Origin: Podarcis melisellensis
Lineage: Eukaryota
DNA: 64,000 bases
Strand: one strand, 5' to 3'
Assembly: GCA_964234715.1 (NCBI GenBank)
Contig: OZ174283.1
Of this stretch, positions 20,676 through 64,000 are shown piece by piece. The stretch's first letter is position 1. Every line of letters starts with the position of its first letter. The notes under the pieces were generated by a model, which saw only the letters and a list, made by a program, of their open reading frames with translations, was not told where the DNA came from and made no database searches. The position numbers and the translations under genes were made by a program.

Positions 20676-20745
20676 TATGTGTTATGTTATGTGTTATGTT
20701 ATGTTTTATGTTATGTTATGTTATGCTATGCTATGTTATGTTATG
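20676..20745. repeat. (TTATG)n microsatellite at the BovB 5' junction
   Basis: Directly visible. Confidence 0.9.
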
Positions 20746-21103
20746 GTGCTGGAGGAGACTCTTGAGAGTCCCATGGACTGCAAGAAGATCAAACCTCTCC
20801 ATTCTGAAGGAAATCAGCCCTGAGTGCTCACTGGAAGGACAGATGCTGAAGCTGAGGTTCCAATACTTTGGCCACCTCATGAGAAGAGAAGACTCCCTGG
20901 AAAAGACCCTGATGTTGGGAAAGATGGGGGGCACAAGGAGAAGGGGACGACAGAGGATGAGATGGTTGGACAGTGTTCTTCAAGCTACTAATATGAATTT
21001 GACCAACCTGTGGGAGGCAGTGGAACACAAGAGTGCCTGGCAGTGCTCTGGTCCATGGGTCACGAAGAGTCGGACATGACTAAACAATTAAACAACAACA
21101 ACA
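20741..21103 (+). mobile_element. BovB (RTE) LINE, 5'-truncated
   Basis: LWCWRRLLRVPWTARRSN...YFGHLMRREDSLEKTLMLGK...RWLD; (caa)n tail. Confidence 0.95.
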
Positions 21104-33480: not shown

Positions 33481-33672
33481 CTCTAGACATTACTGGTATA
33501 AAAGGCAATACCATGTTCACCAGGGAGCAATGCTGTGCTTTTAGCTCCATGCCATGTAAGGATTAATGCGAGAATACATGCACACCTCCCATCTCTAGTT
33601 TAGGAGGTTAGGCTCAAGCTGGAAACAGAGATAGAAGGGAAGGGAATGTGAATGTGAATGTATGACTGGGTT

Positions 33673-34176
33673 TGTTGTTGTTTAGTCGTTTAGTCGTGTC
33701 CGACTCTTCGTGATCCCATGGACCAGAGCACGCCAGGCACTCCTGTCTTCCACTGCCTCCCGCAGTTTGGTCAGACTCATGTTCGTAGCTTCGAGAACAC
33801 TATCCAACCATCTCGTCCTCTGTCGTCCCCTTCTCCTTGTGCCCTAAATCTTTCCCAACATCAGGGTCTTTTCCAGGGAGTCTTCTCTTCTCATGAGGTG
33901 GCCAAAGTATTGGAGTCTCAGCTTCAGGATCTGTCCTTCCAGTGAGCACTCAGGGCTGATTTCCTTAAGAATGGATACGTTTGATCTTCTTGCAGTCCAT
34001 GGGACTCTCAAGAGTCTCCTCCAGCACCATAATTCAAAAGCATCAATTCTTCGGCGATCAGCCTTCTTTATGGTCCAGCTCTCACTTCCATACATCACTA
34101 CTGGGAAAACCATGGCTTTAACTATACGGACCTTTGTTGGTAAGGTAATGTCTCTGCTTTTTAAGATGCTGTCTAG
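33673..34176 (-). mobile_element. BovB LINE, 5'-truncated
   Basis: MVFPVVMYGSESWTIKKADRRRIDAFELWCWRR...; (ttg)n tail; TSD atgactgggtt/atggctgggtt. Confidence 0.95.
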
Positions 34177-58040: not shown

Positions 58041-58337
58041 GGAGTCCCATCTTTCCCTACCGGATTACCCTGTATGAGTTTACAGCGCATTCAACTGAAT
58101 CACTTCTTTGACGTCTCTAGATCCAGCCACAGTGAGTCTGAAACGAGAGTGGTGTTAAGATAAGGGCAAGCCTGGCTGATAAATCTGATGGTGAAAATGG
58201 CTCATGGCCTCTTGTAGCAAGTGACCCCCCATATATGCTCAAATGTAAGAGTATCCTGACACTCTCAGGTGAGTGGGGTTGAATAAAATCACATGAGAAT
58301 TTAACACAGAATTTTATGGGTGAGTATATTGGACTGA

Positions 58338-58791
58338 AAGCAGAGACATCACCTTACCAACAAAGGTCCGTATAGTTAAAGCCATGGTTTTCCCAGTAGT
58401 GATGTATGGAAGTGAGAGCTGGACCATAAAGAAGGCTGATCACCGAAGAATTGATGCTTTTGAATTATGGTGCTGCAAGAAGATCAAACGTATCCATTCT
58501 TAAGGAAATCAGCCCTGAGTGCTCACTGGAAGGACAGATCGTGAAGCTGAGGCTCCAATACTTTGGCCACCTCATGAAAAGAGAAGACTCCCTGGAAAAG
58601 ACCCTGATGTTGGGAAAGGTTGAGAGCATAATAAGAAAGGGACGACAGAGGACGAGATGGTTGGACAGTGTTCTTGAAGCTACAAACATGAGTCTGACCA
58701 AACTGCGGGAGGCAGTGGAAGACAGGAGTGCCTGGTGTGCTCTGGTCCATGGGGTCACAAAGAGTCGGACACGACTAAATGACTAAACAAC
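58338..58791 (+). mobile_element. BovB LINE, 5'-truncated, with a 29-bp internal deletion
   Basis: BovB RT C-terminus; TSD atattggactga/atgttggactga. Confidence 0.95.
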
Positions 58792-59890
58792 ATGTTGGAC
58801 TGATACACAGGGAAAGGGATGTAAACAATCTGGGGGGAAAGGTATAGCAAATTGTGTACAACTGAATTCTGTAATTAATCTGAGACATTTTCTTAAGGAA
58901 CCCATGAGCCGGGAAGAGTCGAACGCAGGGCAGAGTGAACCCATGCAACAATAAAGTAGAAATGCACTAATACACTAATTCAGGAAAAGTCACCAGGTGG
59001 ATGCCAGGAACAGCATTGAACAGCATTCCGTACAGCCAAATTATGACTGCTGTACAGTTAGTCCCCATGCCATCCACCCTCGCAACCCACCCCCACAGTT
59101 TTCAATCAGTGTCGTGTTTACTTTTGCTACATTTCACCTACAAGAGGCTTTTAAACCGACGGCTTTCCATGCCTCCTGCTAGGCCATCATCTCATAGTGA
59201 CCCTCTGAAATCAATGGCCTAAGTAGGGGGTGACGGAAAACATGCAGTAAACAGGCAAGCCATTTTCTGTTGGGAAATATAAGAAAGATATTTAGTCTAA
59301 ATATGCACTCATGGCCCTTAATCACTCATGCAAATGTTGCATCAAATCCAGCGGAAGTTTTGTCCAATAAACACCGGGGTCTTCGTCTCTGCGCATTTGA
59401 GTGTGTGCTGCCTGACTGGGCTGCCTCGCACTCAAGTGATTGCATGCTTGTTTGGTACTTTACCAACTTCAAGTAATCATTTCTTATTGTGTGATTCATT
59501 CTTCGTTGTGACTTCAGTGGATAATAGCACATCCTCAAGTGAATAGCCACAAATTGCTACAAAGTTGCTAAACACAAGCCTGCCACACACACACCCCACC
59601 TTCAAGTGCTTATCGTGATTAGACTAGTGCAAGTTGCTGCTGCCTAGCCCAACTCTAGCCTCCAGAGTCTTGGACAGAGGTCTTTCCAAACCTTATTGCC
59701 TAAGATCGTGAGCTGGAGATACCAACAACTGAGCTTGGGAATGATGCAGAGGATGTAGCCACCGAACTGAGCTCCTTCCCCAGAAGGAGCAACTGATTTA
59801 TTTTCTATCTGTGCCGGCACAAGTAGGACCACTAGGCTGGTGGCACTTTGACATCTACATGAGTAAAAACACATATCTTAGTGGCATCAC

Positions 59891-60850
59891 TGATGTAGCG
59901 GAGAGGAAACGCAGGGGAGCATAGATTGTGGATTCTTTCCAGAGCAGAAGTGAAGACATCGTCTACCAGAGAACCACAGCAGATATTCCTTGCTTTGGGA
60001 GTTGAATGAGGTCAGAGGCAGATTTAGGGAAGCATGACTGGTTTGGTCACACTGGGCACACTGAGCCTCAAGAGTGCCGTTAGAGACACCACAACTATTA
60101 TTTAGAATGGAGAGAGCTGGACCATAAAGAAGGCTGATCGCCGAAGAATTGATGCTTTTGAATTATGGTGCTGGAGGAGACTCTTGAGAGTGCCATGGAC
60201 TGCAAGAAGATCAAACCTCTCCATTCTTAAGGAAATCAGCCCTGAGTGCTCACTGGAAGGACAGATCGTGAAGCTGAGGCTCCAATACTTTGGCCACCTC
60301 ATGAGAAAAGAAGACTCCCTGGAAAAGACCCTGATGTTGGGAAAGAGGGAGGGCACAAGGAGAAGGGGGCGACTAAGGACGAGATGGTTGGATAGTGTTC
60401 TCAAAGCTACCAGCATGAGTTTGACCAAACTGTGGGAGGCAGTGGAAGACAGGAGTGCCTGGCATGCTCTGGTCCATGGTGTCACGAAGAGTCGGACATG
60501 ACTAAATGACTAAACAACAACAATGAAAGTGTTGGTATTTTCATTCTCCATTGCTGGATCATGTGATCCTGTGTTTACTTTTCTGTACTGTTGTGTGTGG
60601 GAACGGAAGTCAGTCTGAGATACTTCCGTTCTTTGTTCTCTTTCTCTCAGTTCTGAGGGAACTGTCTGTGTGAGAAGACGCAGTTCACCGCTCGTCATGA
60701 TGCTTTTGTTTTCTTTGCTGTAAATAAAGACTCTGGTGCTACATATCTGACACAATCTTGCTTTCACTGAACTCTGCTAATGTGTGCTCACATCTATGGA
60801 TGTGGGTCAAAGTGTTATATGGGACTGGCCCAAAGGAATGTCCCGATAGA
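59891..60850 (+). mobile_element. Probable LTR fragment interrupted by BovB
   Basis: Starts with tg; U3/R-like sequence; taaataaa at 60721; ends and TSD unresolved. Confidence 0.4.
60107..60523 (+). mobile_element. BovB LINE, 5'-truncated
   Basis: ESWTIKKADRRRIDAFELWCWRR...HGVTKSRT; (caa)n tail. Confidence 0.95.
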
Positions 60851-61961
60851 GTGGTGGGGGGGGGCACTGAATTTTGGTGTTCCAAAGCGCACGTCTGAAG
60901 TTTTAGACCCCAAGGTCTGCCACTGATATGTTGATAATGAGGCTTTCAAATTGTTTGTGATAAATTAGCAGAGAACAGGGGTAGCCAGCATTACAGATGT
61001 TGCTGCATTACAACTCACAACATCCCTGGCCATTGCCCATGCTACATGGGAGTTGGCAGAGAGGAAGTCAGAGAATGAGGAAAATAATCAAGCAAGAATG
61101 CTGACACTCCTTTGCAAGGAGTGTTTGCGTTTCTAATTGAAAGCCAAAGTTTGCATTTCAGCTAGCTGAAGATCTTTTGCTAAAGCATAATGCACTTTCC
61201 AAATAGAGTCTATGCAGTCAGGTAGGAACTTCCTTATGGGTGTGCATGCAATTTCAGTCGCATTGATCCTAATCAGCTGGGCATTATGCTCTGTACTGCT
61301 GTGTGTGCATGTGCGTATGTGCGTGCATGCATGCAAGTAATAATGATCTACCCAGCTGCCTGCATTTTGGGGTTTTCCTTGGGGGCTGTCATGAGACACT
61401 CTTGCACTCAAACCTTACCATACATCACTGGGTGTAGTGCTTTGCATGAAAAAGGTCCCAGGTTGCACCTTCAGCACACTTCCTTAAAGGATCTCAGGGA
61501 ACAGAGACAGAAAATACCCCCTCCAGAAATCTCGCCGAGCAGCTGCAGAGCAAGACAAGATGGGGATAGGTAGACCAATGGCCAACATGAACAAAATATT
61601 GCTTAGGGAAACTGCACATCCTCAATTCCAAAATACAAAACTCTTAACAAGAATTCAGGGGGAAAGGAATGGGCAAAGTGGAGGAAGAAGAAAGGAATAA
61701 AAATGGTACCCATCAGTCTTAATCTTAATTCAGTATCTCTGGCACTTACCCAGGGCGGTGATGTTCCCATGGAGTTCTGTGCAAGAAGGAGCTGCCCCCA
61801 TTCATTTTTTTCAGTGTTGAGGAATGCTATATGTCCACAGTGAAGCTTTATCTTTGCTTTGAGAAGCAAATGGGAGTGTACTGGTCCAGTAAACGCTTCC
61901 ACTGCGCAACCAGCAACAGTTCTCTTTGCAGAGTATTAATTAAGTCCTGTGCAGAGATTCT

Positions 61962-62218
61962 TGTTGCAGTACAAGCTTCAGAGTCTCAGCAGCAAAGAAA
62001 TAATGACACAGGGAAGCCTGTCTTTCCAAAGACAGGTTTATTGCAGAAAGATAACAGAAAAACCTCCGGAGCTTTCAGACATTTTTGCTTCACGCCCCGC
62101 AGGCAGAGAAAACAAACACTCTTTATATACTGAGCAACTTAACAACTTAACAAGCTTGACTACTTAAAGTCACATGACATTGCTAACTTGCCAGCGTCTT
62201 AGGTTTCACACCCTAACA
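61962..62218 (-). mobile_element. 3' LTR of a Ty1/copia element (257 bp)
   Basis: tgtt...aaca termini; minus-strand TATATAAA (about 62122-62129) and AATAAA (62037-62042); abuts the PPT gcgagaggggg (62219-62229). Confidence 0.8.
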
Positions 62219-62248
62219 CCCCCTCTCGCTGGCAATACAAAAACAAAA

Positions 62249-64000
62249 TTACTTCAGACCCATTTCTTCACAAAAGTTTTCATGCCGCTGAAACCCAAGC
62301 GGTTTTGTAAAACCATCAGCTTGATTTTCATGACTGGGACAGTAATTTAATTTAACGATTCCTGCTTTTACCGTTTGACAAACATTTTGAAAGCGGATAT
62401 CCAAATGTTTTGTACGACCTTTAAACTGCCCATTTTGTGCTAACTTAAGACACGGTTGATTATCACCCCATACAGTGATTGGAGTGATGGCCTTTTCATA
62501 CATCTCTTGTGCCAAGCATTTGTAAAATTCTAGATCTCTACATAACTCAGATAAGGCACAGAACTCAGCTTCTGTTGACGACAAAGCAATCAGGTTCTGT
62601 TTCTTGGATCTCCACCCAATCAGAGAGTTACCAAATTTTATTACACAGCCAGACACTGATTTTCTATCCTTTAAATTTGCCCAATCACTATCTGCAAAAC
62701 AAGTAATCTGTGCTTGTCCTTCAGAAGATAATTCCAGGCAAAAATCTTTGGTGTATTGTAAATATCTTAACACTCTCTGAATTCCTTTCCATGCATTTAC
62801 ACTAGGTTTTGAAGCTTCTCTGCTGAGTAAGTTAACAGCGTAAGCAATATCAGGTCTACTCCATTGAGAAAGATGAAGTAAGCTTCCCAGTGCTGACTGA
62901 AAGATTTCAGCACGCTTGAATTCAGCACTATCCTTGAACTCATTGTCTTTTACAAAACCCATTTCCATTGGTGTTCTAACACCTGCACACTCTGTCATGC
63001 CAAACTTTTTCAACATTTGCAATATCTTGCCTTTTTGATTCAGTAGAAAACTGCCATTTTTGGTCCTATCTATCTGAACACCAAGATAGACCTTCACATC
63101 ACCAAGATTCTTAACTTTGAAGTGTTTATTTAACTCTTTGGCTAGTTTTTTTACTTGTTCTTGTGTCTTTGAAGTATAAATCAGGTCATCTACATAAACA
63201 AGCAAAGATTCTTGGGCATCTCCTGAACCTCTGAAATATAAGCAATTGTCAGCCTTGCTCCTGCTAAAACCAATGCCTACCAAAACGTCATTCAAACACT
63301 CATTCCAATTATGAGCAGATTGCTTGAGTCCATAAATAGATTTATGTAGTTTCCATACCTGATTTGATTTACCAACTTTCAATCCTGGCGGTAGCTCCAT
63401 ATAGAGCTCTTCAGCCAAGTCTGAATGAAGATAAGCTGTTGAGACATCAAATTGATTCACTTTGAACCCTTTCTGAGCAGCAACTGCTAATAGTGCCCGT
63501 AGGGTTTCACTCCTTGCAGTGGGTGCATAGACTTCGGAATAATGTAACTCCTTTCTTTGCGTAAAACCTCGAGCTACAAGCCTTGCTTTGTACTCTGGTT
63601 TCCCCATCGCTGTTGTCTTTATCCTGTACACCCACCTACAACTTATTGCCTTGGCACCTTCTGGCAGTTTGGTGATGGAAAACACACCCAGTTCTTTCAT
63701 AGAATTTAACTCTTTTTGCATGGCCTCACGCCACCTACTGGCCTCCTCCTGGGGTAATTGCTCAACCTCCTCAAAACTTTCAGGTTCGCAATTTGCCAAA
63801 CCAGCCCAAACACTAATAGCTTGGTACCTTTCAGGTTTACCTTTGTTGGTACGCTTGGAACGCCTTAACGGTTCCTGTGATGTTCCTTCAGTTTCCCCCT
63901 CTGACCCAGAATCACTAGTCGTCACCTGTTTGTCACTAGTAGTTGAAGAACTTTCTGATTCTGACTTTGCACGTCTCTCTTGCTGCACAGGTGAACTTTT
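62249..64000 (-). CDS. pol: Ty1/copia pol polyprotein (integrase-RT linker, RT, RNase H); partial, continues beyond the window
   Basis: Uninterrupted frame with RRSKR linker, WREAMQKE, YKARLVARG, QFDVSTAYL, LHKSIYGLKQSAHNWN, YVDD (63185-63196), RPDI, ADSDWA, SSTEAE, DNQ, KHLDIR and ADGFTK. Confidence 0.97.
   Translation of the reverse strand, partial: KSSPVQQERRAKSESESSSTTSDKQVTTSDSGSEGETEGTSQEPLRRSKRTNKGKPERYQAISVWAGLANCEPESFEEVEQLPQEEASRWREAMQKELNSMKELGVFSITKLPEGAKAISCRWVYRIKTTAMGKPEYKARLVARGFTQRKELHYSEVYAPTARSETLRALLAVAAQKGFKVNQFDVSTAYLHSDLAEELYMELPPGLKVGKSNQVWKLHKSIYGLKQSAHNWNECLNDVLVGIGFSRSKADNCLYFRGSGDAQESLLVYVDDLIYTSKTQEQVKKLAKELNKHFKVKNLGDVKVYLGVQIDRTKNGSFLLNQKGKILQMLKKFGMTECAGVRTPMEMGFVKDNEFKDSAEFKRAEIFQSALGSLLHLSQWSRPDIAYAVNLLSREASKPSVNAWKGIQRVLRYLQYTKDFCLELSSEGQAQITCFADSDWANLKDRKSVSGCVIKFGNSLIGWRSKKQNLIALSSTEAEFCALSELCRDLEFYKCLAQEMYEKAITPITVWGDNQPCLKLAQNGQFKGRTKHLDIRFQNVCQTVKAGIVKLNYCPSHENQADGFTKPLGFQRHENFCEEMGLK

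Follow-up and report, generated by a model that had tools for sequence, protein, structure and literature searches.

The 64,000-nucleotide stretch of the lizard Podarcis melisellensis analyzed here (GenBank assembly GCA_964234715.1, contig OZ174283.1; G000:C9:19468001-19532000 in our coordinates), referred to below as the window, ends in a minus-strand copy of a Ty1/copia retrotransposon, the focal element. Its features are collected in Table 1. A scan of the window for open reading frames (ORFs) gives 583 codons without a stop at 62249-64000, in agreement with the more than 580 open codons noted in a first-pass annotation made from the window's letters. The adjoining stretch (L001, G000:C9:19528500-19536500) extends this to a frame of 1,294 codons that starts at L001:5634, about 2.1 kb outside the window. 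The integrase, protease, and gag that the annotation had expected beyond the window edge all lie in this single frame, in the order gag, protease (DSGA), integrase (HHCC, D-D-E), reverse transcriptase (RT), and ribonuclease H (RNase H). The catalytic motifs of RT and RNase H were recovered by motif scan, the RT being of the RVT_2 type (E 8e-70), and the polypurine tract (PPT) is present from 62219; the individual RNase H motif labels are those we take to apply. The whole protein-coding element measures 4,944 bp. Domain order, the type of RT, long terminal repeats (LTRs), primer-binding site (PBS), PPT, and a 5-bp target-site duplication (TSD) all place it in the Ty1/copia superfamily, the TSD being a property of the family and not of the window copy. 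The integrase-RT linker (residues 680-735 of the L001 protein, partly window 63880-64000) holds three KSES-containing repeat units, and its length differs by 54-108 bp in other copies.

Table 1. Features of the focal copia element in the window (positions of the window; a dot marks a feature without strand).
Feature	Position	Strand	Basis
3' LTR, 343 of 354 bp; starts TG; U5 lacks its final 11 bp and with them the TA end of the family; no TSD	61876..62218	-	
Part of U5 formerly taken for host flank; holds the predicted "TSD" attct	61876..61961	-	
Ragged junction with three bases that could belong to LTR or host flank alike, a presumed microhomology from the putative empty-site contigs of two runs	61876..61878	.	
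Sense copy of initiator methionine tRNA (tRNA-iMet) nt 7-32; core 61893-61907 = nt 10-24, 14/15 identical	61883..61910	-	comparison with tRNA from L068
AATAAA poly(A)-signal-like site	62037..62042	-	sequence
TATA-box-like site in U3; putative RNA polymerase II promoter	62122..62129	-	sequence
Polypurine tract adjoining the 3' LTR	62219..62233	-	sequence
Single gag-pol frame, 3' part, from the last stretch of the integrase-RT linker through RT and RNase H to the stop	62249..64000	-	ORF
RNase H: FADSDWA, SSTEAE, WGDNQ, NQADGFTK	62252..62700	-	motif scan
Reverse transcriptase, copia type, PF07727 (RVT_2), E 8e-70; FDVSTAYL and YVDD motifs	62963..63685	-	Pfam and motif scan

The LTR was found to be longer than first described. 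The first-pass annotation had closed it at 257 bp and had taken attct (61957-61961) for its TSD. The repeat continues for 86 bp beyond that closure, to 61876, and the same 86 bases recur after the 5' LTR; full copies have an LTR of 354 bp whose last bases, CTCTTA, are followed at once by the PBS or the host flank. The supposed TSD is internal to the LTR, and the five bases beyond the 5' LTR, where attct had been predicted to recur, read GTTCT (+ strand), a look-alike at four of five positions that we take for chance. A word from the middle of the LTR has 150 matches in the genome, and a control word has none. We gathered 81 focal loci, of which 80 were checked as one set and one is a re-fetch. 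After 12 had been dropped (three duplicates, five without a partner LTR, four complex) and eight had been joined into four pairs, 65 insertions remained: 47 with an exact 5-bp TSD, 6 with one mismatch in the TSD, 6 with full ends and no TSD, and 6 with a short U5. The genome also holds sister families whose RT is 63-69% identical to the focal one, and the focal family and its sisters are together called the clade below.

The PBS of the focal family lies directly after the LTR and pairs exactly with nucleotides 32-39 of tRNA-iMet (8 nt, taken from the genome's own tRNA-Met, for which ARAGORN reports six genes in L067-L069). Four of the tRNA-Met genes stand in alternating orientation on a tandem unit of about 860 bp (L067, G000:C316:8150-9800). 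An LTR-adjacent PBS that reaches the anticodon arm of tRNA-iMet is the arrangement of half-tRNA-primed copia, and we regard priming by the 5' half of the initiator tRNA as very likely. Anticodon-loop priming is described for Drosophila copia, for Ty5, and for copia of fungi (PMC10886601). Self-priming by the element's RNA was rejected, as the longest PBS complement in the element is 9 nt and far from the LTR, and the core of the PBS tracks the real tRNA. The exact PBS is 8-9 nt long in 15 of 16 clade rows, as against 30-32 nt in three outsider families of the same genome, and position 9 is variable in the focal family (C in 28, A in 10, and G in 3 of 41 PBS). In the genome, a pattern covering tRNA nt 10-39 is matched 71 times, and most of the matches inspected are the perfect 30-nt PBS of unrelated copia families with RT 35-40% identical to the focal one.

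Several other loci deserve mention. A second young copia family (L075-L105, for example L083) has 331-bp TG…CA LTRs and an exact TSD in 23 of 25 cases. Its PBS, perfect over 30 nt, ends at tRNA nt 10, beside a position with what is presumably a methylated G. Two rearranged copia ends (L070:170-460 and L088) carry the complement of the entire 39-nt half of tRNA-iMet, a direct footprint of the half-tRNA primer; their PBS tracts run to tRNA nt 1, so that copying of the 39-nt half is directly recorded. L085 holds a reverse-strand copy of full tRNA-iMet and, about 400 bp later, a copy of the 39-nt half, and was not called copia. At L077:1455-6801 lies a chromovirus-type gypsy element with a 1,359-codon frame and a chromodomain, nested downstream of another element's PBS. 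It was considered as a gypsy with a half-tRNA PBS and rejected, because the gypsy LTR starts about 680 bp downstream of that PBS.

Near its end, the U5 region of the clade contains a sense-strand copy of part of the 5' half of the primer tRNA. LTR positions 312-326 correspond to tRNA-iMet nt 10-24 and are identical at 15 of 15 bases in most family copies; in the window copy a C-to-T change alters one of these bases, and the tRNA base stands at that site in 68 of 89 LTR matches. Against 1,000 dinucleotide shuffles the tract scores p <=0.002 in all 16 clade rows. The same shuffles give p 0.86-0.98 in the three same-genome outsider families, which have no tract. At 27 half-tRNA PBS sites among 79 distant loci, with the lizard tRNA as stand-in, the score was <=16 in 27/27 and the lowest p was 0.02. 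Nine further loci, found by a tract-based pattern and hence not independent, have a PBS of 8-9 nt. In a comparison of tract rows, the D-loop AAG is identical in 9 of 9. In a swap matrix, the U5 arms of the clade pair less well with their own PBS than with the perfect tRNA complements that serve unrelated families as PBS; therefore the tract follows the tRNA. Rfam at gathering thresholds finds no match in the element. We consider that the tract is probably kept by selection. No report of a primer-tRNA copy in the U5 of a coding copia was found in a literature search that had Repbase/Dfam and most subscription papers outside its scope, and the accessible parts of PMC4131045, PMC4139406, and PMC12220202 add nothing on this point. 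[quoted passage not shown]

On balance, with slightly better than even confidence, we explain these observations together as a young lizard Ty1/copia insertion that is probably half-tRNA-primed and carries a copy of its primer in U5, with fold-back trimming as a more tentative mechanism. In the proposed mechanism, minus-strand synthesis would cross U5, after which the new DNA would hold, at a distance of about 28 nt from the primer junction, the complement of the primer's own free 5' part. The new minus strand could then fold back onto the primer, and RNase H would cut the resulting RNA/DNA hybrid and leave a stub of about 8-15 nt. Plus-strand synthesis would copy the stub only, and 8-9 nt of the PBS would be renewed per cycle while the rest decays. 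The same-genome families without the tract, in contrast, keep a PBS of 30-32 nt. The duplex between primer and minus-strand U5 is predicted at -53 kcal/mol and that between primer and PBS at -31.5 kcal/mol (RNA parameters). Variation at PBS position 9 would also follow if a short stub were copied and ended there. One of the 41 focal PBS (L106) follows the tRNA complement, with one mismatch, to nt 25-22 before it returns to family sequence; this return point coincides with the end of the exact U5 tract (nt 10-24), which fits the stub model. Among the mechanisms considered we favor fold-back of the minus strand on the primer with trimming by RNase H, as a tentative proposal. It is a shade more doubtful that the element's built-in primer copy governs the extent of primer copying into the plus strand and in this way allowed the PBS to shrink to 8-9 nt.

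Several points weigh against this explanation. The link between the tract and a short PBS amounts to one phylogenetic contrast and not many. Distant copia without the tract also have a short PBS, of about 12-15 nt, and therefore the tract is not needed for a short PBS. Several families keep the tract over nt 17-34 only, and in one copy (L124) U5 is deleted and the tract lost. Wobble-direction counts stand at 4 vs 3 non-CpG sites, with two rows out of register, and the tract was compared with tRNA-iMet only. No RNA or cDNA intermediate was observed. The focal U5 also pairs with its own PBS region better than shuffles do (z -3.1 and -1.9), as a cis hairpin would.

This last observation belongs to a reading in which the tract forms, as the upstream arm, an RNA hairpin together with the PBS and leader, its likeness to the tRNA arising solely from the PBS being tRNA-complementary. 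Retroviral U5-PBS or U5-leader stems serve as a model for it, and the focal U5-PBS-leader is predicted to fold into a long hairpin. Against it, z ranges from -1.6 to +0.3 in the 13 remaining clade rows, which lie outside the focal family, and in the swap matrix only one of nine clade U5 arms, the focal one, has its own PBS as the best partner within the clade, a perfect tRNA-complement PBS being always better. We hold this reading to be improbable.

Not quite so improbable, but still unlikely, is a functionless relic, left or now and then refreshed when RT switches template onto packaged initiator tRNA. The sense orientation is what copying of the tRNA during minus-strand synthesis, an established mechanism, would give. 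Alignments of the tract reach tRNA nt 42-43, beyond the end of the half primer, in 5 of 25 tract rows, and the families keep different parts of it, L124 having lost it. Persistence at the same place in families as far apart as the clade's sisters, the invariant D-loop AAG, and the 15 exact bases in most focal copies argue against a functionless relic.

A third alternative, that the tract is an RNA polymerase III (Pol III) promoter as proposed for the Helenus TRIMs, draws on its overlap with the A-box region of the tRNA and on the tRNA-derived LTR segments described in PMC10886601. It is largely refuted by the missing B box: none of the 19 rows scanned has a B-box-like site between -100 and +250 of the LTR end. 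In addition, T8 of the tRNA is kept in one of four rows aligning there, and the 4.9-kb element is protein-coding with TATA and AATAAA sites, so that a Pol III role is very improbable indeed.

To our knowledge, how half-tRNA-primed elements limit primer copying has been little studied. If true, fold-back trimming would be an undescribed cis-acting step in the replication of LTR retroelements that can be read from genomes, for which the same-genome families (PBS of 30-32 nt without a tract, 8-9 nt with one) provide a natural comparison.

The ends of the LTRs depart from the canonical TG…CA. Full U5 ends of the focal family terminate in TA in 58 of 59 cases and in TG in one. Among the sister loci, 12 of 20 were resolved for their ends; exact TSDs confirm TG…AA in L112, L120, and L125, TG…GA in L114, L115, L116, and L119, as well as in L233, and TG…CA in L121. 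Two others are full-ended without a TSD, and three did not resolve at the 3' end. Sister families with different LTR ends are about 0.02 changes per site apart in the RT-RNase H tree. In young lizard copia families, TA, GA, and AA occur as LTR ends besides CA, and because of this, pipelines that demand TG…CA will miss them or cut them wrongly, as the earlier reading of the window did.

Distant half-tRNA-primed copia from metagenomes (L147-L225) have TA, GA, or AA before the PBS at 14 of 27 sites (11 TA, 2 GA, 1 AA, and 13 CA, the final A being required by the search). Of 19 distant sites examined for LTR pairs, seven were resolved, two of them TA with an exact TSD. The idea that the TA end is specific to lizards was rejected on these grounds, and relaxed U5 ends may be general for the half-tRNA priming type. 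The TA end needs no special mechanism, as spacer-less half-tRNA copia accept any base before the final A. It is a known kind of variation, non-CA ends being known in plant copia (10.1101/137141), and no report of the TA end for animals was found in the literature. Three residues past the catalytic Glu, the integrase has F, H, or L in most clade families; the residue there is N in 117 of 123 proteins compared, in Ty1, and in foamy virus. A change at this position as the needed cause of non-CA ends was rejected, since two distant TG…TA elements with exact TSDs (L183, L204) keep the N; one clade row (L228) also keeps it yet ends in GA before the PBS, its TSD not having been checked.

The window copy is young, as the first-pass annotation had proposed. 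The identical 5' LTR that it anticipated is there, with 0 differences over the 343 shared bases. In 30 LTR pairs, 6 differ at no site, 17 at one or two, and 7 at three to eight, the first 20 loci being the best matches and so biased toward young copies. Divergence between the window copy and 11 other copies is 1.2-1.8%. The suggestion of an intact element holds for the open pol frame with its catalytic motifs; it does not hold for gag, which is 327 bp short. The gag deletion is in frame and defined relative to 15 of 28 full-length copies, whose gag is 326-327 bp longer; another 12 have the short gag, and one differs otherwise. A frame of at least 1,290 codons occurs in 7 of the 28 copies, five with short and two with long gag. 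Relative to P0002, a protein of Podarcis lilfordi, a gap of about 100 residues follows residue 111, and the gag domain PF14223 is matched only over positions 4-76 of 172. We infer that part of the capsid is absent from the short-gag form and that this form was helped in trans to spread, and the deletion appears from the sequence to entail a loss of function. The window copy is not an autonomous one and likely depends on coat protein from other copies; because gag is deleted in frame, the activity that had been thought possible is doubtful for this copy by itself.

The junction of the window copy is ragged. It is one of the six short-U5 insertions, and its flanks in element orientation are AGAAC and TCCCA. 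In each of three public runs, from organisms A, B, and D, a flank contig stops matching at 61876-61878 and carries about 490-516 further bases not found on the stretch, and the flank contig of a fourth run ends at 61870. The three contigs appear to represent the empty site, which would agree with a recent date of the insertion. The inner element sequence at 62190-62300 has no differences in all four runs. No contig among the four runs spans the filled junction, so this one locus may be misassembled.

Either one-ended integration or a later small deletion could have left this end, and we cannot tell which. The possibility that a TA end makes integration error-prone, the window copy being a one-ended integration repaired by host enzymes, has a precedent in avian retrovirus vectors with bad ends (PMC5041404). 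It would account for a short U5 in 6 of 65 insertions, as against 0 of 114 LTR matches that start late at U3, and for the 3-base microhomology at the window junction. Because most LTRs were detected by way of a U3 start that is intact, the U3 count is biased, and one of the six short ends (76 bp short) may be a later insertion. In a TG…CA control family (31 loci taken, six dropped as unpaired or of another family, leaving 25), one of 25 is short (Fisher p 0.67), and all anomalies together amount to 12 of 65 vs 1 of 25 (p 0.10). An excess of ragged ends in the focal family was accordingly rejected as not significant against this control, and we consider the error-prone end doubtful.

The presence of copia in a lizard, which the first-pass annotation found surprising given its sparseness in vertebrates, is ordinary. 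Of 24 Squamata surveyed, 23 carry copia, and 66% of the copies detected belong to this group (PMC11889832); the apparent copy counts given there, if we understand the column correctly, are 1004 in Podarcis muralis and 304 in Zootoca vivipara. With squamates the most copia-rich group in that survey, a framing in terms of rarity and transfer carries little weight. A search of the genome with the RT gives about 50 focal-family matches at 95-100%, followed by other families at 63-66%. In protein searches, in which about 8,000 best candidates were scored each and 120 listed, identities are 99% (P0001), 64% (P0002), 67% (P0121-P0123), 59% (one fragment), and <=45% for the rest; the best host-labeled non-squamate animals among the matches listed are Trichuris (42-43%) and Araneus (41%), and the best 79 metagenome loci reach 39%. 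A quick tree of 63 RT-RNase H rows chosen by hand (44 of 235 proteins and 19 genome rows) unites in one clade the focal family, its sisters, P0002, and P0121-P0123, with full support in the Shimodaira-Hasegawa-like approximate likelihood ratio test (SH-aLRT 100).

Horizontal acquisition, also raised by the annotation, finds no backing in these results. For a recent transfer from an arthropod or other host one can cite the long stem of the clade (0.59), the three proteins at 67% without a host label, and an old entry into sarcopterygians, left open in PMC11889832. The many diverged sister families in the same genome, Podarcis lilfordi as the sole host-named source in the clade, the low identities of the named non-squamate animals and metagenome loci, and the presence of the family sequence in the runs of organisms A, B, and D render it highly improbable. 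That the tree comes from a quick rather than a careful search and has few host-named rows counts against this conclusion. We judge with considerable confidence that there was no recent horizontal transfer; the family was likely inherited within lizards, and an ancient transfer of the whole clade may have occurred. Membership in the Mtanga clade is likely, by virtue of the statement on squamates in PMC11889832, where Mtanga is the only copia clade of terrestrial deuterostomes.

Other observations concern the surroundings and the genomic distribution. Copia is strongly concentrated on the 38.8-Mb G000:C19, to which belong 29 of the 53 matches to tract plus PBS and, at 21-37 Mb, identical RT matches by the dozen, like amplified blocks; our guess is that it is a W chromosome or other heterochromatin. 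One insertion with equal flanks is found twice, 436 kb apart, on G000:C21 (L002 and L003), as a segmental or assembly duplicate. Within the window lie four copies of the 3' end of a long interspersed element (LINE) that are 86-97% similar (20741-21101, 33672-34160, 58337-58796, 60112-60523) and that we take to be Bov-B/RTE-like, together with many short hairpin repeats of the short interspersed element (SINE) or miniature inverted-repeat transposable element (MITE) type.

Half-tRNA-primed copia constitute the genus Hemivirus. The focal element shares with them the 5-bp TSD and the single frame, and differs in a PBS that is exact over 8-9 nt only and in the sense copy of the primer half in U5. 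With Drosophila copia, Ty5, and fungal Copia it has in common a PBS to the tRNA-iMet anticodon arm directly after the LTR (PMC10886601). It resembles the Mtanga-clade Copia of squamates and amphibians (PMC11889832; frogs in PMC4131045) in its squamate host and its many families and copies; the accessible text of PMC11889832 classifies by RT/RNase H and does not describe LTR ends, PBS, or U5 content. The non-TGCA Copia of plants (Tos17 with TG…GA, TGTA, and others; 10.1101/137141, PMC9804982) have the TG…TA and TG…GA ends, the short LTRs, and the close relatives with different ends that are seen in the focal clade, but the latter has an animal host. Its TG…AA ends (three copies, exact TSD) are not among the eight copia ends that the accessible text reports for lotus, namely TGTA, TGGA, and six others (PMC9804982). 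The Helenus TRIMs likewise carry tRNA-derived sequence inside the LTR, and those of fungi use anticodon-loop priming; they are short (<~1.3 kb) and noncoding, keep boxes A and B, and have a tRNA part that is not complementary to their own PBS (PMC10886601). The focal element falls outside the Helenus/TRIMp3 definition of a noncoding element below about 1.3 kb with boxes A and B in the LTR: in contrast to Helenus, it codes for protein and lacks the B box, and its tract is a copy of the primer tRNA itself.

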